The notes: generated by a model not told the origin, from the letters alone. Shown: positions 23,474 through 33,856, counted from the stretch's first letter. The stretch is 64,000 bases of DNA from GCF_054482595.1 NZ_CM137008.1, one strand, 5' to 3'. Numbers and translations are program-made.

Positions 23474-23725
23474 ATACTGTATGGCCTGGAAGCTATATTT
23501 CGGGCCGTATTGATTTTCTTGTCACTATGCTCATCAATAAACGAGCCTGTACTCTGTTAACCAGCGTCTTTATCGGAGAATAATTGCCTTTAATTTTTTT
23601 ATCTGCATCTCTAATTAATTATCGAAAGAGATAAATAGTTAAGAGAAGGCAAAATGAATATTATCAGTTCTGCTCGCAAACGAATTCCCGTACACTGAAC
23701 TCTCTGGCTCACTGAGGGCACCATC

Positions 23726-23998
23726 ATGGCACTCCCCCGTATTACCCAAAAAGAGATGACTGAGCGCGAGCAGCGTGAACTTAAAACACTGCTGGATCGG
23801 GCGCGGATTGCGCATGGTCGCGTACTGACCAACTCCGAAACCAACAGCATTAAGAAAGAGTACATCGATAAATTAATGGTCGAGCGTGAGGCTGAAGCGA
23901 AAAAAGCCCGCCAGTTAAAGAAAAAGCAGGCTTATAAACCGGATCCTGAAGCGTCATTTAGCTGGTCAGCAAATACGTCGACGCGCGGCAGGCGCTAA
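23726..23998 (+). CDS. yjbD: DUF3811-family small protein
   Basis: 90-aa highly charged protein (MALPRITQKEMTEREQRELKTLLDRARIAHG...); syntenic between lysC and rluF. Confidence 0.8.
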   Translation: MALPRITQKEMTEREQRELKTLLDRARIAHGRVLTNSETNSIKKEYIDKLMVEREAEAKKARQLKKKQAYKPDPEASFSWSANTSTRGRR

Positions 23999-24130
23999 TG
24001 AACAATCAACGCCTGAGATTTTCACTCGTCTGTGTGGACACAATCTTCCCCTCAACCTAACCCTCTCCCCGAAGGGGCGAGGGGACTGTCCGAGCACTTT
24101 TTGGACGTTTTCATCAGTCTGAGGCGTTAA

Positions 24131-25003
24131 TCAGCGTCCCTTCTTTTTACGCCCCGGCGAGGTAAAACGCTTACCGTTGGACGCCGGGCGACCGCCTTTT
24201 TCCGCCGTTTTTTCCATCTTAACGACTGGACGTTTGATGCCCGCCGTTTTCGGTTTAGCCTTCGCTTTAGGTTTTGCCTCGGAAGAGGAATTTTCAATGA
24301 GCTTAAAGAGGTCGATTAACTCATCGTCGGTTAAATCGCGCCACTCCCCCAGTGGAATGCCGCTTAAGCTGACGTTCATAATGCGCGTACGTTCCAGCTT
24401 TTTCACTTCGTAACCAAAGTGCTCACACATGCGACGGATCTGACGGTTCAACCCCTGCACCAGGGTAATGCGGAAGACAAACGGTGCTTCTTTTTTGATT
24501 TTGCACTTTTTCGTCACCGTCCCGAGGATCGGCACTCCCGCCCCCATACCACGAATAAATTCATCGGTAATCGGTTTATCGACCGTTACCAAATACTCTT
24601 TTTCATGATCATTGCCAGCACGCAGGATCTTATTCACCAGATCGCCGTGATTGGTGAGGAAAATCAGCCCCTGGGAGTCTTTATCCAGGCGGCCAATCGG
24701 GAACACGCGTTTGCTGTGGTTAACGAAATCGACAATGTTATCGCGCTCGCCATCTTCGGTGGTGCTGACAATACCGACGGGCTTGTTCAGGGCGATAAGT
24801 ACCAAATCTTCGGCTTCCCGAGGCTCAATCAACTGACCGTTTACTTTCACAACGTCGCCGGGTTTCACCTGATCGCCAATGGTGGCTCGCTTGCCATTAA
24901 GGAACACATTGCCTTGCTCGATATAGCGATCCGCTTCGCGGCGTGAGCAAATTCCGCTTTCGCTGATGTATTTATTTAAACGGACTGATGAGTCGGGCAG
25001 CAT
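24131..25003 (-). CDS. rluF: 23S rRNA pseudouridine synthase F
   Basis: 290 aa; S4 domain at the N-terminus, RsuA/RluF catalytic motif ([14 protein letters not shown]), lysine-rich C-terminal tail. Confidence 0.9.
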
Positions 25004-25350
25004 AAATTCTCCTGTAAAACGCGGAATATACCGTACCTCTTAGCAGGGAAAAACAGAGTTATGCGGCAACGTCGAAATTAAATGTGATCTGCCGCGCCTT
25101 TTATCACAAAAGTGTCTCCGGAAGTACAATGCAAATTTGCGTGGCAAAATAAGGATAATCAACATATTACGAATCGCTGCACACCTGTGCTGATAACTAC
25201 TACGCAGAGAAACAAATGTGCAAGAGAAAGCGCTATTTCTCCCCATGCAAAGAGTGAAAAATCGCTTTGAAAGGCCATCATGATGGGGTTATATCAGATC
25301 AAGCGGTGAGAAAGCGTATTTGCACAAATGTGCAGAACCAGGAGGCGGCA

Positions 25351-26298
25351 ATGGAAAACAGTGACGATATCCGTTTGATTGTGAAGATTGCCCAACTCTA
25401 TTACGAACAGGATATGACGCAGGCGCAAATCGCGCGCGAACTGGGTATTTACCGCACCACCATCAGCCGCTTGCTTAAACGAGGCCGCGATCAGGGAATT
25501 GTCACCATCGCCATCAACTATGACTACAACGAAAATCTCTGGCTGGAGCAGCAACTGAAGCAAAAGTTTGGCCTGAAAGACGTTGTGGTGGTGTCGGGAA
25601 ATGATGAGGATGAAGAGACTCAACTGGCGATGATGGGGTTACACGGCGCGCAACTGCTGGATCGCTTGCTGGAGCCTGGCGATATTGTCGGTTTTTCCTG
25701 GGGTCGCGCGGTGAGCGCACTGGTTGAAAACTTGCCGCAGGCGGGGCAATCGCGGCAGTTAATCTGCGTACCAATTATTGGCGGACCGTCCGGTAAACTC
25801 GAAAGCCGCTATCACGTAAACACATTAACCTACAGCGCGGCAGCGAAGCTGAAAGGGGAATCGCATCTCGCGGATTTTCCGGCTCTACTGGATAACCCAT
25901 TAATTCGTAATGGGATCATGCAGTCTCAGCACTTTAAAACCATCTCTGCCTACTGGGATAATCTGGATGTCGCCCTGGTGGGAATTGGCTCACCGGCCAT
26001 TCGCGACGGCGCTAACTGGCATGCGTTTTATGGTGGTGAAGAGAGTGACGACCTGAATGCCCGCCAGGTTGCTGGCGATATTTGCTCGCGCTTTTTTGAT
26101 ATTCACGGCGCAATGGTTGAAACGAATATGAGCGAAAAAACACTCTCTATCGAAATGAATAAATTAAAGCAGGCGCGGTATTCCATTGGCATTGCCATGA
26201 GTGCAGAAAAATACAGCGGAATTGTTGGTGCACTGCGTGGAAAATATATTAATTGTCTGGTAACGAATAGCAGCACAGCTGAACTATTACTGAAATAA
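25351..26298 (+). CDS. sorC: Sorbose operon transcriptional regulator (SorC family)
   Basis: ATG at 25351 preceded by AGGAGG; 315 aa; N-terminal HTH (MTQAQIARELGIYRTTISRLLKRGRDQG) plus a SorC sugar-binding domain; first gene of a sorbose-type PTS operon. Confidence 0.85.
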   Translation: MENSDDIRLIVKIAQLYYEQDMTQAQIARELGIYRTTISRLLKRGRDQGIVTIAINYDYNENLWLEQQLKQKFGLKDVVVVSGNDEDEETQLAMMGLHGAQLLDRLLEPGDIVGFSWGRAVSALVENLPQAGQSRQLICVPIIGGPSGKLESRYHVNTLTYSAAAKLKGESHLADFPALLDNPLIRNGIMQSQHFKTISAYWDNLDVALVGIGSPAIRDGANWHAFYGGEESDDLNARQVAGDICSRFFDIHGAMVETNMSEKTLSIEMNKLKQARYSIGIAMSAEKYSGIVGALRGKYINCLVTNSSTAELLLK

Positions 26299-26367
26299 AA
26301 ATCTTCCCGATGTTTACCGTAATAAAAATTACGGCGGGTCCCTATTATCTAAAATCAGGAGTCTGTT

Positions 26368-27174
26368 ATGCAAACGTGGTTAAATTTGCAGGATAAAATC
26401 ATTATCGTCACCGGCGGCGCATCCGGTATTGGTCTGGCGATTGTAGAGGAATTATTAGCACAAGGCGCAAACGTACAGATGGTAGATATTCACGGTGGCG
26501 ATGGTCAATATGAAGGTCATAAAGGCTATCAGTTTTGGCCGACCGATATTTCCAGCGCCAAAGAGGTAAATCATACGGTAGCGGAAATTATCCAGCGTTT
26601 TGGTCGCATCGACGGTCTGGTCAATAACGCCGGGGTCAATTTCCCGCGTCTGCTGGTCGATGAGAAAGCGCCTGCCGGGAAGTATGAACTCAACGAAGCT
26701 GCATTCGAAAAAATGGTCAATATCAACCAGAAAGGCGTTTTTCTGATGTCGCAGGCGGTGGCGCGACAGATGGTCAAACAACATGATGGCGTGATTGTGA
26801 ATGTTTCCTCAGAAAGTGGACTGGAAGGCTCAGAAGGACAAAGCTGTTACGCCGCTACCAAAGCCGCGCTCAATAGCTTCACGCGCTCCTGGTCGAAAGA
26901 GCTGGGTAAACACGGTATCCGTGTGGTCGGTATCGCGCCGGGGATTCTGGAAAAAACAGGACTGCGCACGCCGGAATATGAAGAAGCGCTGGCGTGGACG
27001 CGCAATATCACCGTCGAGCAGCTGCGTGAAGGCTATACCAAAAACGCCATTCCTATTGGGCGCGCCGGAAGATTAGCAGAAGTCGCTGATTTTGTTTGTT
27101 ATCTGCTGTCTGAACGCGCCAGCTACATCACCGGAGTAACCACTAACATTGCGGGCGGCAAAACGCGCGGATAA
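26368..27174 (+). CDS. sorD: Short-chain dehydrogenase (D-glucitol/sorbitol-6-phosphate dehydrogenase, SorD-like)
   Basis: 268 aa SDR with TGGASGIG cofactor motif and YxxxK active site; operon position. Confidence 0.8.
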   Translation: MQTWLNLQDKIIIVTGGASGIGLAIVEELLAQGANVQMVDIHGGDGQYEGHKGYQFWPTDISSAKEVNHTVAEIIQRFGRIDGLVNNAGVNFPRLLVDEKAPAGKYELNEAAFEKMVNINQKGVFLMSQAVARQMVKQHDGVIVNVSSESGLEGSEGQSCYAATKAALNSFTRSWSKELGKHGIRVVGIAPGILEKTGLRTPEYEEALAWTRNITVEQLREGYTKNAIPIGRAGRLAEVADFVCYLLSERASYITGVTTNIAGGKTRG

Positions 27175-27183
27175 GGAGGCTTT

Positions 27184-27591
27184 ATGGTCAACGCCATTTT
27201 TTGTGCCCACGGCAAATTAGCTTGCGCCATGCTGGAATCGGTTCAGATGGTTTACGGCAACACCAATGTTGAAGCCGTTGAATTTGTGCCCGGTGAAAAC
27301 GCCGGAGACATCGTAGCAAAGCTGAAAAAGTTAGTAAGCATTCACAATCAAGATGAGTGGCTGATTGCCGTGGATTTACAGTGCGGCAGCCCGTGGAATG
27401 CGGCAGCGATGCTTGCGATGCGCAATCCTCGTCTGCGGGTAATCAGCGGACTTTCTCTGCCGCTGGCGCTCGAACTGGTTGATAACCAGGACAGCATGAA
27501 TGTTGATGAACTGTGTGAACACCTGACGCAAATCGCAAAGCAAACCTGCGTTGTCTGGAAACAACTGGCAACGACAGAGGAGGATTTCTGA
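27184..27591 (+). CDS. sorF: PTS mannose/sorbose-family EIIA component
   Basis: 135 aa EIIA-Man fold (MVNAIFCAHGKLA...); 1-nt overlap with the next gene. Confidence 0.8.
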   Translation: MVNAIFCAHGKLACAMLESVQMVYGNTNVEAVEFVPGENAGDIVAKLKKLVSIHNQDEWLIAVDLQCGSPWNAAAMLAMRNPRLRVISGLSLPLALELVDNQDSMNVDELCEHLTQIAKQTCVVWKQLATTEEDF

Positions 27592-28085
27592 TGAACATTA
27601 CGCTCGCCCGCATTGATGACCGCCTGATCCATGGTCAGGTCACTACCGTCTGGTCGAAAGTGGCTAACGCCCAGCGCATTATTATCTGCAATGACGAAGT
27701 TTATAACGATGAAGTTCGCCGGACATTATTGCGTCAGGCTGCGCCACCGGGAATGAAGGTTAACGTGGTCAATATTGAAAAAGCCATCGCGGTTTATCAC
27801 AACCCGCAATATCAGGACGAAACCGTTTTTTATCTTTTCACTCGCCCACAGGATGCCTTAGCGATGGTTCGCCAGGGGGTAAAAATAGGCACCCTGAATA
27901 TTGGCGGCATGGCCTGGCGGCCCGGTAAAAAACAGTTAACCAAAGCGGTTTCATTAGATGATGATGATATTAACGCATTTCATGAGTTAAATAATCTTGG
28001 CGTCATATTGGATTTACGCGTCGTAGCGTCAGATCCCTCAATCAATATTATCGACAAAATAAACGAACAGTTAATCGCAAATTAA
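27591..28085 (+). CDS. sorB: PTS mannose/sorbose-family EIIB component
   Basis: 164 aa; N-terminal RIDDRLIHGQV motif with the phosphorylated His typical of EIIB-Man/Sor. Confidence 0.85.
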   Translation: MNITLARIDDRLIHGQVTTVWSKVANAQRIIICNDEVYNDEVRRTLLRQAAPPGMKVNVVNIEKAIAVYHNPQYQDETVFYLFTRPQDALAMVRQGVKIGTLNIGGMAWRPGKKQLTKAVSLDDDDINAFHELNNLGVILDLRVVASDPSINIIDKINEQLIAN

Positions 28086-28150
28086 ATAATAGCGCCTGTG
28101 TACATATGCTTTAACAGGCAGGGATGACGACACTTAAAAGGTGACAAATC

Positions 28151-28948
28151 ATGGAAATAAGTACCCTACAAATTATTGCTATATTTCTTTTTTTCTGTAT
28201 TGCCGGAATGGGCAGCGTGCTGGATGAATTTCAGACTCATCGCCCGTTAATTGCCTGTACGGTGATTGGTTTAATTCTCGGTGATTTAAAAACCGGAATA
28301 ATACTCGGTGGTACGCTGGAATTGATAGCTCTCGGCTGGATGAACGTCGGCGCGGCGCAATCTCCGGACTCTGCACTCGCCAGCATAATCTCCGCCATTC
28401 TGGTTATCGTTGGTCAGCAAAGCATCGCCACCGGAATCGCCATCGCGTTGCCTGTGGCTGCGGCAGGCCAGGTGCTGACGGTGTTTGCCCGTACCATCAC
28501 CGTAGTGTTCCAGCACGCGGCGGATAAAGCAGCGGAAGAGGCGCAGTTTCGCACTCTCGATATTCTGCATGTCTCCGCGCTTGGCGTGCAGGCGCTGCGC
28601 GTTGCTATTCCGGCACTGATTGTCTCGCTGTTCGTCAGCGCCGATATGGTGAGCAATATGTTAAACGCCATTCCCGAATTTGTGACCCGAGGACTACAGA
28701 TTGCTGGCGGTTTTATCGTGGTGGTCGGTTACGCCATGGTGCTACGTATGATGGGCGTGAAATATTTGATGCCTTTCTTTTTCCTCGGTTTCCTCGCAGG
28801 TGGCTACCTCGATCTCAGTCTGCTGGCGTTCGGTGGCGTCGGCGTGATCATGGCCCTGGTCTACATCCAGCTAAATCCACAGTGGCGTAAAGCTGAACCT
28901 CAACTCCAGGCCACCGCCTCCACCGCCCTTGACCAACTTGACGATTAA
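28151..28948 (+). CDS. sorA: PTS mannose/sorbose-family EIIC component
   Basis: 265-aa polytopic membrane protein of the EIIC-Man family. Confidence 0.85.
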   Translation: MEISTLQIIAIFLFFCIAGMGSVLDEFQTHRPLIACTVIGLILGDLKTGIILGGTLELIALGWMNVGAAQSPDSALASIISAILVIVGQQSIATGIAIALPVAAAGQVLTVFARTITVVFQHAADKAAEEAQFRTLDILHVSALGVQALRVAIPALIVSLFVSADMVSNMLNAIPEFVTRGLQIAGGFIVVVGYAMVLRMMGVKYLMPFFFLGFLAGGYLDLSLLAFGGVGVIMALVYIQLNPQWRKAEPQLQATASTALDQLDD

Positions 28949-28958
28949 CGGAGCCATC

Positions 28959-29783
28959 ATGGAACAGAGAAAAATTACACGCAGCGATCTGGTGAGCATG
29001 TTTCTGCGCTCCAACCTGCAACAGGCGTCCTTTAACTTTGAACGTATTCACGGGCTGGGTTTTTGCTACGACATGATCCCCGCCATCAAGCGACTTTACC
29101 CATTAAAAGAGGATCAGGTTGCGGCGCTCAGGCGACACCTGGTGTTCTTCAATACCACGCCAGCCGTATGTGGCCCGGTCATCGGCGTCACTGCCGCCAT
29201 GGAAGAGGCGCGGGCCAACGGCGCGGAAATTGATGACGGTACCATTAACGGCATCAAAGTCGGTCTGATGGGACCATTGGCAGGAGTTGGCGATCCACTG
29301 GTCTGGGGAACGCTGCGCCCGATTACCGCCGCGCTCGGCGCATCTCTGGCACTTTCGGGCAACATTCTCGGCCCGCTGCTGTTCTTCTTTATTTTCAATG
29401 CGGTGCGTCTGGCGATGAAGTGGTATGGCCTACAGCTCGGCTTTCGCAAAGGGGTGAATATCGTCAGCGATATGGGCGGGAATGTGCTGCAAAAACTCAC
29501 CGAAGGCGCGTCGATTCTCGGACTGTTTGTGATGGGCGTGCTGGTCACCAAATGGACGTCAATCAACGTACCGTTGGTGGTTTCACAAACGCATGCCGCC
29601 GATGGCTCCACCGTCACCATGACCGTGCAGAACATTCTCGACCAACTTTGCCCTGGTTTGCTGGCGCTCGGTCTGACGCTACTAATGGTTCGTCTGCTCA
29701 ACAAAAAAATTAACCCGGTATGGCTGATTTTCGCCCTGTTTGGCTTAGGGATTATCGGCAATGCGCTGGGCTTCCTGTCCTGA
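28959..29783 (+). CDS. sorM: PTS mannose/sorbose-family EIID component
   Basis: Track ORF begins at TTG 28929; ATG at 28959 with GGAG ribosome-binding site gives a 274-aa EIID (MEQRKITRSDLVSMFLRS...), 10 nt after the sorA stop. Confidence 0.8.
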   Translation: MEQRKITRSDLVSMFLRSNLQQASFNFERIHGLGFCYDMIPAIKRLYPLKEDQVAALRRHLVFFNTTPAVCGPVIGVTAAMEEARANGAEIDDGTINGIKVGLMGPLAGVGDPLVWGTLRPITAALGASLALSGNILGPLLFFFIFNAVRLAMKWYGLQLGFRKGVNIVSDMGGNVLQKLTEGASILGLFVMGVLVTKWTSINVPLVVSQTHAADGSTVTMTVQNILDQLCPGLLALGLTLLMVRLLNKKINPVWLIFALFGLGIIGNALGFLS

Positions 29784-29834
29784 TTCTTCGCCCCGGCACG
29801 ACTGCCGGGGCCATCGCTCAACATAAGGTGGTTT

Positions 29835-31064
29835 ATGAAAACAACAGCTCTGCGTCTTTATGGTAAACGTGATTTACGCCTGGAAACCTTTGATCTTCCT
29901 GAAATGCAGGAGGATGAAATCCTCGCGACGGTGGTCACTGACAGCCTGTGCCTCTCTTCCTGGAAAGAGGCCAACCTGGGTGAAAACCATAAAAAAGTAC
30001 CCGACGATGTGGCGACCAACCCAATCATCATCGGCCACGAGTTTTGCGGCGATATTCTGGCCGTGGGTAAAAAGTGGCAGCACAAATTCCAGCCGGGTCA
30101 ACGTTATGTAATACAGGCCAACCTGCAACTCCCCGACCGCCCGGACTGCCCCGGCTACTCCTTCCCGTGGGTGGGTGGTGAAGCCACACATGTGGTTATC
30201 CCAAATGAGGTTATGGAACAAGATTGCCTGCTGGCATACGAAGGCGAAACCTACTTTGAAGGCTCGCTGGTTGAACCGCTTTCCTGCGTGATTGGCGCGT
30301 TCAACGCCAACTATCATCTTCAGGAAGGTAGTTATAACCACACGATGGGGATTCGCCCGCAAGGGCGCACGCTGATCCTCGGCGGCACCGGACCAATGGG
30401 ACTGTTGGCGATTGATTATGCGCTACATGGACCCGTTAACCCGTCGCTGCTCGTCATTACCGATACCGACAACGATAAATTGAGTTATGCGCGCAAGCAC
30501 TATCCATCAGAACCGCAAACACTGATTCATTATCTCAATGCCACCGATGCAGCATTTGATACGCTAATGGCGCTGAGTGGCGGTCACGGCTTCGATGATA
30601 TTTTCGTCTTTGTGCCTAATGAAGGACTGGTGACTCTCGCCTCTTCCTTGCTGGCGACAGATGGTTGCCTGAATTTCTTCGCCAGACCGCAGGATAAACA
30701 TTTCAGCGCGCCAATTAATTTCTACGATGTGCATTATGCATTTACCCACTACGTGGGCACGTCAGGCGGCAATACCGACGACATGCGCGCAGCGGTCAAA
30801 TTGATTGAAGAGAAAAAAGTGCAGGCCGCAAAAGTGGTAACACATATTCTTGGGCTGAATGCCGCGGGCGAAACCACGCTTGAATTACCTGCCGTCGGCG
30901 GCGGCAAAAAGCTGGTGTATACCGGGAAATACCTGCCGCTGACGTCACTCACGCAGATTCAGGATCAAGCACTGGCGGCGATTCTGACGCGTCATCAGGG
31001 GATCTGGTCCGGTGAGGCGGAGCAATATCTGCTCACTCATGCAGAGGCAATTTCCCATGATTAA
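29835..31064 (+). CDS. sorE: Zinc-type alcohol dehydrogenase-like sorbose-1-phosphate reductase
   Basis: 409-aa MDR-family dehydrogenase (GHEFCG zinc motif, GGTGPMG Rossmann motif); last gene of the operon. Confidence 0.8.
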   Translation: MKTTALRLYGKRDLRLETFDLPEMQEDEILATVVTDSLCLSSWKEANLGENHKKVPDDVATNPIIIGHEFCGDILAVGKKWQHKFQPGQRYVIQANLQLPDRPDCPGYSFPWVGGEATHVVIPNEVMEQDCLLAYEGETYFEGSLVEPLSCVIGAFNANYHLQEGSYNHTMGIRPQGRTLILGGTGPMGLLAIDYALHGPVNPSLLVITDTDNDKLSYARKHYPSEPQTLIHYLNATDAAFDTLMALSGGHGFDDIFVFVPNEGLVTLASSLLATDGCLNFFARPQDKHFSAPINFYDVHYAFTHYVGTSGGNTDDMRAAVKLIEEKKVQAAKVVTHILGLNAAGETTLELPAVGGGKKLVYTGKYLPLTSLTQIQDQALAAILTRHQGIWSGEAEQYLLTHAEAISHD

Positions 31065-31209
31065 TCGCGTTACTCAACTCTGCATGTCGCTGGCTGGTCG
31101 CACCAGCAACTTCGCGACCGGATGTGCTGCTGATTGCTGAAGCAGCACAATTTGCACGAGAAGCATAAAAAATATCAGCGCCTTAAGGGGCGCTCAAATT
31201 GGTGGCAAA

Positions 31210-31320
31210 GTGCACATTGTTTATGCCGGATGCGGAATGAAGCCTTATTCGGTCTACATAATTTTGAAAATTCAATATATTGCAGTTATCTGGTAGGCCA
31301 GGTAAGCGTAGCGCATCAGG
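31210..31320. repeat. REP-like palindromic units between sorE and pepE
   Basis: TGCCGGATGCGGAATGAAGCCTTATTCGG... and AGGCCAGGTAAGCGTAGCGCATCAGGC resemble degenerate REPs. Confidence 0.5.
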
Positions 31321-31444
31321 CAATGCTGTGTTTGTCATCAGTCTCAGCGCCTGTGCAATACGTGACATCGTGAGCCATGTCAGTAAGTGGTTAAATTCGC
31401 AGTGGTAGCATTCCTTCCGTGATTTCTTACTAACCGGAGAAGTA

Positions 31445-32134
31445 ATGGAACTGCTTTTATTGAGTAACTCGACGCTGCCGGGTAAAGCCTGGCTGGAACA
31501 TGCACTGCCGCTAATTGCTGAACAGTTGCAGGGTCGCCGCTCAGCGGTGTTTATCCCTTTCGCTGGCGTAACGCAGACCTGGGATGATTACACAGCGAAA
31601 ACGGCTGCGGTTCTCGCTCCGCTGGGTGTTTCTGTCACCGGTATTCATAGCGTTGTCGATCCCGTTGCCGCGATTGAAAATGCTGAGATCGTGATTGTCG
31701 GGGGCGGGAATACTTTCCAGTTGCTGAAACAGTGCCGCGAGCGCGGGCTGCTGGCACCAATTACTGACGTGGTTAAACGTGGTGCGCTGTATATTGGCTG
31801 GAGCGCAGGCGCTAACCTTGCTTGCCCAACCATTCGTACCACCAACGATATGCCGATTGTCGATCCGCAAGGTTTCGATGCGCTAAATCTGTTCCCGCTG
31901 CAAATCAACCCGCACTTCACCAACGCGCTGCCGGAAGGCCATAAAGGTGAAACCCGTGAGCAGCGTATTCGCGAACTGCTGGTCGTCGCGCCAGAACTGA
32001 CGATTATTGGTCTACCGGAAGGTAACTGGATCACAGTGAGTAAAGGTCACGCTACGCTGGGTGGCCCGAACACCACTTATGTGTTTAAGGCTGGTGAAGA
32101 AGCGGTGCCGCTAGAAGCTGGTCACCGTTTTTAA
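31445..32134 (+). CDS. pepE: Alpha-aspartyl dipeptidase (peptidase E)
   Basis: 229 aa; [28 protein letters not shown]; S51 peptidase with GWSAGAN serine motif. Confidence 0.92.
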
Positions 32135-32140
32135 GTGAAT

Positions 32141-32212
32141 TGCCGGATGCATGATCCGGCATCTTGTTCATAGTGCCTGATGCGACGCTTGACGCGTCTT
32201 ATCAGGCCTACA
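32141..32212. repeat. REP element
   Basis: GCCGGATGCATGATCCGGC hairpin followed by GCCTGATGCGACGCTTGACGCGTCTTATCAGGCCTAC. Confidence 0.7.
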
Positions 32213-32224
32213 GGATTCACAATA

Positions 32225-33856
32225 TTAATACTCGTCCCGTCCTTCATCTTCATCCGGCTGTTCCAGCACACTGTAAGCCACCGAACAAAACAGCGAGTTC
32301 AGGCGCTGCATATCTCCCAGTAAGCCTAAATGTAGCGAACTGGTTTCAATGCTCTGCACGTTTTGCTGATGCAGGCGATCGACGTGGGCGTGGGAATAGC
32401 GGCGATTAAGAATGCGAAAACGATGTTTGCTGCGACGCAAACGACGAGCGCTGGTGACATCGCCAGAGAAGAACACCGACATTGCCAGTTTTAAATTACT
32501 GAGCAATTGCTCATAGAGCGCATCCAGTTCCTTCAAGCCATCAAGCGAAAATGCCCGCCGTGCTGCCAGCGATTTATCGGCAATTTCGCTGCCCATGCGC
32601 TCGACGATATCGGAGGCCTGTTCAAGGTTGAGCGACATTTCGATGATCTCCGCCCAGCGGCGCGACTCTTCCTCCGCCAACTCTTCTTTTGGCATCCGCG
32701 CCAGATACAGCTTAATGGCGGTGTAGAGAACGTTGATATCATCTGCCAGCTTACGCAGCTCTTTCTCCTGCCGTGGCTCGCCGTGCATCACTTTATTTAG
32801 CCCTTCCATCATCTGTTCCATGGCGTCGCCAATGCGCAGGGTTTCGCGCGCGGCGTTCGCCAGAGCAAGCGTGGGCGTATCCAGCGCGCTGACATCCAGA
32901 TGTTTGGGCCGTAGCTGGGTATCCAGTTCCGGTTCATCGCGAATAATCGTTTTGCAAAACCGTGCCATCGGGTCAACAAATGGCAGCATGACCAGGCAAC
33001 GTACAAGGTTGTAGAAGACGTGGAAATAGATCACCAGTTCCGCTTTTGGCAATGACAACTTCCCCATTGTCTCTGCCAGCAAATGGACAAACGGCAGGAT
33101 AATCAGGCTACCCACCAGCTTAAACAGCAGACTACCCAGCGCGACACGGCGGGCTGCGGCATTGGCGGCACTGTTGTTGAGCATCGCCAGCAGACCGGAA
33201 CCGAGGTTAGCACCAATCACCAGACAGAGCGCCACGGGGAAGGAGATAATGCCTGCGGCGGTCAGAGTCGCGGTCAGCAGTACAGCAGCAAGGCTGGAGT
33301 AGCTGATAATGGCGAACATCGCGCCAATCAGCGCATCCAGCAGAATATCGCCGGTCAGCGAGGCAAAGATCACCTGAACGCCGTTTGCCTGGGTGATCGG
33401 CGTTACGGCCTGCACAATCAACTCCAGCGCCAGCAAAATCAGCCCAAGACCAATACCGACGCGGCCCAGTTGCCCGGCGCGTGACTGTTTGCGTCCGAGG
33501 AAAAAAATCACGCCGATAAAAAGAAGTAACGGTGACAGCCAGGATAAGTCGAAGGTGAGAATACGCGCCATTAGCGCCGTCCCGACATCTGCACCCAGCA
33601 CAATGACCAGAGCCGGTGCGAGGGCTACCAGATCCTGAGCGACAAACGAGGTCACCAGCATGGTGGTGGCATTACTGCTCTGTACCAGTGCGGTAACGCC
33701 GATCCCCGCGCAAAAGGCGAGCGGCTTTTTTTCGACGCTCCGGCTAAGGACAGTACGCAAACGCGCGCCGAAGACGCGCATTACGCCGGTTCGAACAATA
33801 TGAGTCCCCCAGACCAGCAGGGCGACGGCAGAAAGCAGGTGAAGCAGCGTTAACAC
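32225..33856 (-). CDS. yjbB: Na/Pi-cotransporter-family membrane protein
   Basis: 543 aa; N-terminal Na/Pi cotransporter repeats and C-terminal PhoU-like domain; syntenic next to metH. Confidence 0.88.
   Translation of the reverse strand: MLTLLHLLSAVALLVWGTHIVRTGVMRVFGARLRTVLSRSVEKKPLAFCAGIGVTALVQSSNATTMLVTSFVAQDLVALAPALVIVLGADVGTALMARILTFDLSWLSPLLLFIGVIFFLGRKQSRAGQLGRVGIGLGLILLALELIVQAVTPITQANGVQVIFASLTGDILLDALIGAMFAIISYSSLAAVLLTATLTAAGIISFPVALCLVIGANLGSGLLAMLNNSAANAAARRVALGSLLFKLVGSLIILPFVHLLAETMGKLSLPKAELVIYFHVFYNLVRCLVMLPFVDPMARFCKTIIRDEPELDTQLRPKHLDVSALDTPTLALANAARETLRIGDAMEQMMEGLNKVMHGEPRQEKELRKLADDINVLYTAIKLYLARMPKEELAEEESRRWAEIIEMSLNLEQASDIVERMGSEIADKSLAARRAFSLDGLKELDALYEQLLSNLKLAMSVFFSGDVTSARRLRRSKHRFRILNRRYSHAHVDRLHQQNVQSIETSSLHLGLLGDMQRLNSLFCSVAYSVLEQPDEDEGRDEY

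Follow-up and report, generated by a model that had tools for sequence, protein, structure and literature searches.

The L-sorbose operon of Klebsiella pneumoniae, sorCDFBAME, was reportedly described by Sprenger and Lengeler in 1984 and by Wehmeier and Lengeler in 1994. In E. coli, mapping by Wehmeier in 1992, as related in a paper that cites it, placed sor near metH and iclR. The cloned operon of strain CFT073 (c4981-c4987) gave DH5alpha growth on L-sorbose (PMC2831201). EAEC 042 carries sorEMABFDC beside rluF and uses sorbose, whereas MG1655 is not a user (PMC2808357). A study from 2025 found the operon to be induced by sorbose; a sorE knock-out lost the benefit of sorbose in complex medium and grew worst among the strains tested, a sor knock-in conferred growth on an ST10 strain, and a sorAM mutant still took up sorbose via other PTSs (PMC12817954).

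We analyzed a window of 64,000 nucleotides from an E. coli chromosome, which is 100% identical to strain XH990. With a probability of about 95%, it carries the chromosomal L-sorbose operon sorCDFBAME as an intact, presumably functional and old resident of its site that was lost in K-12. Because the CFT073 copy has been cloned with growth on L-sorbose and the 2025 study provided knock-outs and knock-ins, the operon counts as known and well studied, and the statement of an earlier, sequence-only reading that the system is not novel agrees with the literature (PMC2831201, PMC2808357, PMC12817954). Two points are added here: the most likely ancestral position of the operon at this site and a deletion scar in an adjoining gene, sdhL.

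The operon is flanked by two core genes that also adjoin sor in other genera: rluF (24131-25003, minus strand; NF007784 RluF, 606.7 bits), which is divergent from sorC, and pepE (31445-32134, plus strand; NF003642 PepE, 357 bits). Positions 25004-31444 are thus the exact rluF-pepE spacer. It is filled by seven intact genes on the plus strand in the order regulator, SDR dehydrogenase, EIIA, EIIB, EIIC, EIID and zinc dehydrogenase, that is, sorC, sorD, sorF, sorB, sorA, sorM and sorE, and the ORF listing of the spacer contains no long competing frames beside them. This gene content and order, already proposed by the sequence-only reading, was borne out by the ORF listing, the family matches and the RefSeq names. 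In K-12 MG1655 the gap between pepE and rluF measures only 211 bp, so that the operon is missing there. The genes metH and iclR lie in the neighborhood, matching the 1992 mapping.

The first gene, sorC (25351-26298, plus strand, RefSeq start), encodes the SorC-family transcriptional regulator of the operon with 315 residues. HTH models match residues 12-53 at the N-terminus, followed by the C-terminal sugar-binding domain (Pfam Sugar-bind PF04198, 2.9e-80, residues 59-316), as expected for a SorC/DeoR-type protein. The top PDB match is SorC from Klebsiella pneumoniae (2W48, 609 bits, full length 1-315) and the second is a "probable sor-operon regulator" (3EFB), while DeoR and LsrR reached at most 142 bits. 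The gene sorD (26368-27174, plus strand) encodes an SDR-type D-glucitol(sorbitol)-6-phosphate dehydrogenase of 268 residues with TGGASGIG and YAATK motifs (NCBIfam PRK06171, sorbitol-6-phosphate dehydrogenase subunit: 501 bits, cut-off 304, 5.7e-151). At the other end, sorE (29835-31064, plus strand) encodes L-sorbose-1-phosphate reductase according to its RefSeq name, a zinc-type medium-chain dehydrogenase of 409 residues (Pfam ADH_N and ADH_zinc_N). Its zinc-ligand motifs, the cysteine of DSLCLS and GHEFCG, are present together with one GxGxxG motif.

Between the dehydrogenase genes lie the four subunits of a mannose-family PTS (TC 4.A.6), all on the plus strand and all above the cut-off of their TIGR models. 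SorF (27184-27591, 135 residues) is the EIIA subunit (TIGR00824 EIIA-man, 147.8 bits, cut-off 98, 1.3e-43) and carries the conserved phosphorylatable histidine, the N-terminal His9, within MVNAIFCAHGK. The start of sorB overlaps the stop of sorF. SorB (27591-28085, 164 residues) is the sorbose-specific EIIB (TIGR00854, pts-sorbose IIB family, 1.1e-66) with the phosphorylation-site motif RIDDRLIHGQV, which includes LIHGQV. The membrane subunits are the EIIC SorA (28151-28948, 265 residues; TIGR00822 EII-Sor, 421.5 bits, cut-off 340, 1.2e-126) and the EIID SorM (28959-29783, 274 residues; TIGR00828, 472 bits, cut-off 293, 4.1e-142).

We considered whether these subunits could form a second mannose, fructose or N-acetylgalactosamine PTS, with dehydrogenases for another sugar. 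The NCBIfam and Pfam models resolve the subunits only to "mannose/fructose/sorbose", SorM also passes the ManZ-named model PRK11103 (415 bits, cut-off 365), and the sorbose import remaining in the sorAM mutant means that specificities overlap in this family. Their identity to ManXYZ of E. coli, however, is only 33-63%, compared to 73-96% for Sor of Klebsiella and Raoultella: 73-79% for SorF, whose gene varies most within the operon (33% to ManX), 92-95% for SorA (63% to ManY) and 93-96% for SorM (62.5% to ManZ). The best structure matches are SorC and the sorbose-specific IIB 1NRZ, which scored 305 bits with SorB compared to 171 bits for the IIB domain of ManX. The likeness to the Klebsiella operon pointed out by the sequence-only reading thus extends to orthology of the subunits. 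A near-identical operon moreover gave sorbose growth experimentally (PMC2831201, PMC12817954). The published cloning and knock-out data effectively refute another sugar specificity, to which we give next to no chance.

By orthology, the operon in the window would work in the way that has been established for sor in Klebsiella and in E. coli. Phosphate is expected to pass from PEP via EI and HPr to SorF and from there to SorB. The membrane pair SorA/SorM would import L-sorbose as L-sorbose-1-phosphate, which SorE would reduce to D-glucitol-6-phosphate. SorD would then convert this product to D-fructose-6-phosphate, which enters glycolysis. SorC would control the operon via conserved sites of the leader. 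Growth on sorbose and induction are likewise predicted for the present strain from near-identical alleles (96.7-98.1% nucleotide identity).

The control region upstream of sorC is a 312-bp leader (25039-25350, plus strand) that lies within the DNA missing from K-12. An alignment over nine species, which belong to six named genera, and an unclassified isolate of the Enterobacteriaceae revealed several conserved blocks: AAATGTGATCTGCCGCGCCTTTTATCACAAAAGTGT (25080-25115), the left half of which is CRP-like, the palindrome GCAAATTTGC (25131-25140), TGCACACCTGTGC (25178-25190), CAAATGTGCAA (25213-25223), GGGTTATATCAGATCAAG (25286-25303), a possible -10 element, and TTTGCACAAATGTGCAG (25319-25335). 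They are followed by the Shine-Dalgarno sequence AGGAGG of sorC (25340-25345). The repeat families D2, D4, I1, I6 and I9 have members in the leader. The pattern GCAC-N4-GTGC occurs twice in the leader and just once more in the rest of the 64 kb; its count across the window is not above chance, and both leader copies are invariant in the aligned species. We infer that the blocks are a putative SorC operator, CRP site or promoter. The promoter, the SorC operators and a terminator are putative elements; the consensus scans performed no better than on shuffled sequence.

Behind sorE we observed a remnant of an eighth gene, sdhL (31057-31168, plus strand), which the sequence-only reading had overlooked. 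A tblastn search with the intact 270-residue SdhL of E. whittamii matched 31057-31119 (residues 1-21, 81%) and 31115-31165 (residues 254-270, 82%). A 701-column alignment gap places the junction at 31113|31114; here 701 bp are missing, and codons 1-21 run into the last 17 codons in a shifted frame. Thus 38 codons survive, and translation of the remnant ends after 27 codons. The ATG of sdhL overlaps the stop codon of sorE (ATGA), which suggests translational coupling. The intact orthologue matches NF009202 "shikimate 5-dehydrogenase" with 467 bits and passes NCBIfam PRK12550; intact orthologues of about 270 residues passing this model occur elsewhere, but not in the window. Its best PDB match is SdhL from Haemophilus influenzae (HI0607, PDB 1NPY; residues 1-268, 378 bits); of sdhL itself the window keeps no more than the 38 out-of-frame codons.

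Nearly every other enterobacterial sor locus has an intact sdhL, as do ST648-type strains such as MSB1_8B, but among 5,426 E. coli genomes the number is only 177. In almost all genera studied the gene keeps its place behind sorE. It has been reported as sorbose-induced in ST648. We regard sdhL as a predicted shikimate-dehydrogenase-like, co-transcribed eighth gene, destroyed by the 701-bp deletion here as in most sor-positive E. coli. We know of no physiological substrate or role of SdhL. A tentative and rather doubtful extension is that the ancestral enterobacterial operon had eight genes with sdhL as the last one, and that SdhL, if the linkage is functional, might be a sugar(-phosphate) oxidoreductase of a sorbose/5-ketofructose branch; a solved member of the SdhL fold, 7COK, is a 5-ketofructose reductase. 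If true, SdhL would not be a shikimate enzyme, and the pathway would have become narrower in E. coli when the gene was lost.

The scar also bears on the question of whether the operon is a decaying, non-functional copy like some in Shigella, since an adjoining gene is already a deletion remnant and the allele is uncommon (only 24 records at least 99% identical). All seven sor ORFs, however, are full length and agree with RefSeq proteins without frameshift, and SorC and SorB align to the Klebsiella structures over 315 of 315 and 160 of 164 residues, respectively. The same sdhL deletion is found in sorbose-positive lineages such as ST131 (deletion from co-linearity, phenotype from PMC12817954). 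The primers used for cloning the CFT073 operon correspond to positions ~25004 and 31065-31095 of the window. That fragment therefore ended inside the remnant and lacked sdhL, yet conferred growth. The sdhL deletion does not abolish sorbose use, and a decaying copy is very unlikely.

Between the remnant and pepE lies a BIME-like block (31184-31352), composed of two inverted REP units in a long imperfect palindrome. One unit (31293-31321) has two mismatches to a REP consensus, with 0 matches expected by chance. Its partner (about 31224-31258) is degraded here, and the E. whittamii orthologue, in which the block has consensus REPs, reads as the second REP consensus. Elsewhere in the window this second consensus recurs in five near-exact copies, and both patterns together have six further copies. 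The block contains the inverted repeats I1 and I5 and has a folding energy of -66.7 kcal/mol (z = -3.97). The REP-like units suspected on the pepE side are therefore a real pair (31224-31321).

Comparison with strains having an empty site showed that homology stops at 25038 and restarts at 31355; 6,316 bp in the window replace 86 bp. Relative to the empty allele the sor region is thus a replacement, and no duplication was found at the junctions 25038|25039 and 31354|31355. The GC content of 25039-31354 (0.508) is host-like, as had been stated, compared to 0.516 for the whole window. Neither integrase, transposase, tRNA nor IS element was present among the ORFs and repeats examined at the locus. 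A genomic island formed by site-specific insertion is not supported in view of the missing integrase, att sites and repeats, the host-like GC content and the synteny across genera.

The operon occupies the rluF-pepE site in 2,865 of 5,426 complete E. coli genomes, the present XH990-type allele being a minor variant. More than 86% of the genomes in each phylogroup carry it, except for A (9.6%) and B1 (12.1%) (PMC12817954). The order rluF-sorCDFBAME-(sdhL)-pepE/yjbB was found in E. whittamii, E. albertii, Escherichia sp., Pseudocitrobacter, Citrobacter, Klebsiella, Raoultella, Enterobacter and Cedecea, so that site and orientation agree across at least seven genera and across every other Escherichia species recovered. 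For Citrobacter, Klebsiella, Raoultella and Enterobacter the nucleotide divergence of sor equals that of the flanks (K. michiganensis: 73-85% identity for sor, 80-82% for the flanks). On grounds of this synteny and the flank-like divergence we infer that the absence in K-12 is a loss, and the operon is most likely ancestral at the site and would have been lost from K-12 and most phylogroup A/B1 strains. The sequence-only reading had spoken of a strain-variable metabolic island inserted at this site; its variability is confirmed, whereas island and insertion are probably not the right terms.

A horizontally acquired island, put into an originally empty spacer in an ancestor of the present strain, is unlikely given this distribution and the lack of mobility features. 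It would account for the absence from K-12 and about 47% of complete E. coli genomes, and REP/BIME elements are present at one edge. In the K-12 spacer, about 50-80 bp match nothing in sor-positive alleles, and the rluF-proximal part is closer to the Citrobacter/Klebsiella type than to Escherichia sor-positive alleles; the spacer is not a clean excision product. In Pseudocitrobacter the sor genes are 86-93% identical to E. coli, closer than lysC/pepE/yjbB (80-82%). Homologous recombination has therefore probably led to some lateral exchange at the locus, and the ancestral operon would not have a purely vertical history.

Compared with known systems, the locus is closest to other E. coli alleles. 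CFT073 (c4981-c4987), EAEC 042 (Ec042-4384-4390), ST131 and ST648 have the same locus and gene set, and over 8.4 kb they are about 96.7-98.1% identical to the window at the nucleotide level. Cloning, a knock-out and a knock-in have shown the function of such alleles (PMC2831201, PMC2808357, PMC12817954). ST648-type strains such as MSB1_8B differ in their intact sdhL and in lacking the BIME block. The Klebsiella operon agrees with the window in its seven genes, their order and their orientation, and in the species retrieved also in the neighbors rluF and pepE/yjbB. Its nucleotide identity is about 73-85%, and an intact sdhL follows sorE in place of the scar. Protein identities amount to 85-87% (SorC), 89-91% (SorD), 76-78% (SorF), 86-88% (SorB), 93-95% (SorA), 93-96% (SorM) and 85-86% (SorE). 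The structures 2W48 and 1NRZ, the latter of which we take to be from Klebsiella, are co-linear with SorC and SorB over the residues given above. ManXYZ belongs to the same mannose/fructose/sorbose PTS family and shares the four-domain IIA-IIB-IIC-IID architecture; IIA and IIB, however, are fused in ManX and separate proteins in the sor operon, and ManXYZ lacks the linkage to SorE, SorD and SorC.

The interval between rluF (24131–25003, minus strand) and pepE (31445–32134, plus strand) contains seven plus-strand open reading frames with short or overlapping junctions. Its limits, 25004–31444, are exactly those that the sequence-only reading had given for an L-sorbose PTS operon, sorCDFBAME. The first gene, sorC (25351–26298), encodes a SorC/DeoR-type regulator with an HTH and a PF04198 domain (2.9e-80), and sorD (26368–27174) encodes an SDR that passed the sorbitol-6-phosphate dehydrogenase model with 501 bits (curated cut-off 304). 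These are followed by four mannose-family PTS genes, all above the curated cut-offs: sorF (EIIA, 27184–27591), sorB (EIIB, 27591–28085), sorA (EIIC, 28151–28948) and sorM (EIID, 28959–29783). The last gene, sorE (29835–31064), codes for a zinc-type medium-chain dehydrogenase with the RefSeq name L-sorbose 1-phosphate reductase. Catalytic and phosphorylation motifs were seen in the translations. The window is E. coli chromosomal DNA; an 8.5-kb query over the region was 100% identical to strain XH990, and its identity to other E. coli genomes, thousands in number, was 96.7–98.1%. The RefSeq annotation of XH990, a urine isolate from China, contains the same seven sor genes. Open reading frames, annotation and family searches all bear out the gene content and support the identification as a sor operon. 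By orthology, L-sorbose would be taken up by the PTS to give L-sorbose-1-phosphate, which SorE would reduce to glucitol-6-phosphate and SorD oxidize to fructose-6-phosphate, with SorC predicted to control the operon. This is the established sor pathway.

The PTS proteins are closer to sorbose than to mannose systems. Direct BLASTP against K-12 ManX, ManY and ManZ resulted in identities of 33% (SorF), 53% (SorB), 63% (SorA) and 62.5% (SorM), compared with 73–96% to the sor-locus proteins of Klebsiella and Raoultella. In a structure search, the whole of SorC (315 residues) aligned co-linearly with the sequence of the Klebsiella pneumoniae SorC crystal structure (2W48, 609 bits). The second match was 3EFB, a "probable sor-operon regulator", and DeoR and LsrR reached at most 142 bits. 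For SorB the top structure was the sorbose-specific EIIB 1NRZ with 305 bits; the IIB domain of ManX scored 171 bits. The EIIA gene sorF (27184–27591) was consistently the most diverged of the operon, with 73–79% protein identity to Klebsiella and Raoultella as against 92–96% for SorA and SorM. Four separate sorF clusters have been described within E. coli (PMC12817954, 2025).

At the corresponding site in K-12 MG1655 only 211 bp separate pepE from rluF and, as had been expected, the operon is absent. The neighbors of this spacer are yjbB, metH and iclR in one direction and yjbD, lysC and pgi in the opposite one. XH990 has the same neighbors including metH and iclR, in agreement with the location near metH-pepE named in the sequence-only reading; according to a citing paper, sor was mapped near metH and iclR in 1992. 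A frameshifted ShET2/EspL2-family type III effector pseudogene lies downstream of iclR in XH990, between iclR and aceK (record 4524888–4526461, RefSeq annotation), beyond window position ~38900. At least 80% of the query was present at the site in 2,865 of 5,426 complete E. coli genomes. Homology to strains with an empty site, i.e. a rluF-pepE spacer without the operon, ends at 25038 and resumes at 31355, and 6,316 bp in the window stand opposite 86 bp in these strains. The difference is a replacement and not a clean insertion. A search of the junctions for flanking direct repeats or a target-site duplication found none. A 9-bp repeat, TCAGCGCCT (31175–83 and 31344–52), at first resembled a duplication around the REP pair at the pepE edge (BIME block). 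It was dropped because the alignment with MSB1_8B, an ST648-type strain, places the indel at ~31184–31328; the repeat is probably coincidental.

In order to determine the direction of the polymorphism, we scanned one genome per species for SorE and ran all window proteins by tblastn on the retrieved loci. Across these loci the order rluF, sorCDFBAME, pepE and/or yjbB was kept: in Escherichia whittamii, E. albertii (truncated by the contig) and two further Escherichia lineages, in Pseudocitrobacter, six Citrobacter, five Klebsiella, four Raoultella, several Enterobacter, and Cedecea. Gene by gene, the nucleotide identity of sor follows that of the flanks (Citrobacter, sor 77–86%, flanks 80–82%; K. 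michiganensis, 73–85% and 80–82%; E. whittamii, 89–95% and 84–92%). The GC content is host-like, as had been noted (0.508 versus 0.516 for the whole window), and the sor region contains no mobility gene. In published data the operon is found in more than 86% of the genomes of each phylogroup except A (9.6%) and B1 (12.1%) (PMC12817954). Taken together, these observations argue that the operon was ancestrally present at this site. The description of the operon as an inserted island is therefore not upheld by the cross-genus synteny and the flank-matched divergence; most likely, the operon was lost in phylogroups A and B1, and the K-12 state represents this loss. Claims of a "pathogen-enriched marker" would then have to be read differently, as pathogens would not have acquired the operon as an island.

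The picture of strictly vertical inheritance of sor is complicated by two observations. In the Pseudocitrobacter loci, rluF and sor are 86–93% identical in nucleotide sequence to window positions 24131–31064, and lysC, pepE and yjbB are only 80–82% identical to E. coli. This suggests that the rluF-sor segment was exchanged between genera by homologous recombination. The second observation concerns the K-12 spacer (positions 2144–2354 of the K-12 locus). Its bases 1–35 and 116/122–211 match sor-positive alleles, bases 36–60 are closer to rluF-proximal sequence of Citrobacter and Klebsiella than to the Escherichia sor-positive alleles, and bases 112–122 match sequence upstream of pepE in Citrobacter. 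The central ~50–80 bp have no match in any sor-positive locus, and the ~80 bp unique to the empty-site spacer gave only chance-level words in the window, 84 related loci and MSB1_8B. With these unmatched and Citrobacter- or Klebsiella-like pieces, the empty allele is not what would be left by simply cutting out the operon now seen in E. coli. Within rluF, the 200 positions 24357–24556 include 21 (10.5%) at which K-12 and the window disagree, compared with ~5% for other sor-negative E. coli and ~2% in the remainder of the gene; the RluF protein is nevertheless 99% identical. A link of this patch to the presence or absence of sor was rejected because it is specific to the K-12 lineage, where it looks like an unrelated recombination patch.

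The account of the gene content in the sequence-only reading was right but missed a frameshifted remnant of sdhL at 31057–31168, the start of which overlaps the sorE stop. In MSB1_8B the intact gene is annotated as a 270-residue "shikimate 5-dehydrogenase" with its ATG overlapping the sorE stop. The window retains only codons 1–21 (31057–31119) and 254–270 (31115–31165); the alignment shows a 701-bp gap with the junction AACTTC|GCGACC at 31113|31114, which results in a frameshift. Nearly every enterobacterial sor locus has an intact sdhL behind sorE (74–95% identity). Among 5,426 E. coli genomes just 177 have retained it, with copies that share 99% identity or more. The gene was reported as an ST648-specific, sorbose-induced neighbor of the operon (PMC12817954, 2025); our comparison points to intact sdhL as the ancestral state, of which other E. 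coli carry a deletion scar. Sorbose-positive lineages and a cloned CFT073 fragment lack sdhL, so that it is dispensable for growth on sorbose. Intact SdhL passes NCBIfam PRK12550 (467 bits, cut-off 306) and its top structure is HI0607/SdhL (1NPY, 378 bits). One solved member of this fold is a 5-ketofructose reductase (7COK, structure search; see also PMC7954740), which motivates but does not support the hypothesis that SdhL may be a sugar oxidoreductase.

REP-like units had been proposed at 31210–31320. We indeed observed a REP consensus match at 31293–31321 (two mismatches, none expected by chance) and an inverted partner at ~31224–31258, which is degraded in the window and of consensus type in E. 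whittamii. This BIME block, which MSB1_8B lacks, forms a long hairpin on folding (z = −3.97). IS1397, which targets BIMEs, was discarded as a marker of the sor-side block in strain 98200, as it sits in the pepE-yjbB spacer instead. An Rfam scan of 23500–32500 gave no match in the sor region. In the pepE-yjbB spacer (32141–32208) the nucleoid-associated RNA naRNA4, which derives from REP sequences, gave a sub-threshold match (47.1 bits, gathering score 59.5). The genes yjbD and rluF converge, and their stops are separated by a ~130-bp element (23999–24130). This element has short inverted repeats at its ends and forms a CCCTCTCCCC...GGGGCGAGGGG hairpin, and we take it to resemble a boxC-type repeat. 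It is present in K-12 and the window and missing from RMDEC332, MSB1_8B and 98200, where yjbD and rluF abut.

Alignment of the rluF-sorC spacer from nine species (six named genera and one unclassified Enterobacteriaceae isolate) revealed invariant blocks at 25080–25115, 25131–25140 (GCAAATTTGC), 25178–25190 (TGCAC-N4-GTGC), 25213–25223 (CAAATGTGCAA), 25286–25303 (GGGTTATATCAGATCAAG) and 25319–25335 (TTTGCACAAATGTGCAG), the last directly 5' of an AGGAGG ribosome-binding site. Three GTGCA-type elements are mutually related and may be SorC operators, and 25286–25303 is a candidate −10 region. GCAC-N4-GTGC occurs three times in the window (1.7 expected, not significant) and is put forward as a candidate operator because of its cross-genus conservation alone. 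Scans for sigma-70 promoters and intrinsic terminators gave the same counts as shuffled sequence. The one promoter-like match upstream of sorC (25101–25130) was set aside because it is not conserved outside Escherichia. Close to the 3' end, the sole clean hairpin that has a run of T lies on the wrong strand for a terminator. The deeply conserved blocks mark specific positions at which SorC operators may lie.

The main outcome is that the existing annotation is correct. The sor operon is already known and experimentally characterized, so the interest of the finding itself is low; the reading of the polymorphism as an ancestral loss, the remnant of sdhL and the blocks conserved in the leader are small, checkable additions. 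Sorbose utilization is a textbook strain-variable catabolic trait in use as a diagnostic and evolutionary marker. The CFT073 operon c4981–c4987, with 82–97% similarity to Klebsiella SorC, D, F, B, A, M and E, was cloned and enabled DH5alpha to grow on L-sorbose (PMC2831201, Table 3 for the similarities); the cloning primers map to window positions ~25004 and 31065–31095. In EAEC 042 sorEMABFDC adjoins rluF, MG1655 lacks the operon, and the Biolog phenotypes match (PMC2808357). Induction by sorbose, knock-outs of sorE and sorAM and a knock-in with an ST10 strain as recipient have been reported, along with assays of competition and in Galleria (PMC12817954, 2025). A recent proposal makes the operon a fitness determinant in high-risk ExPEC lineages.
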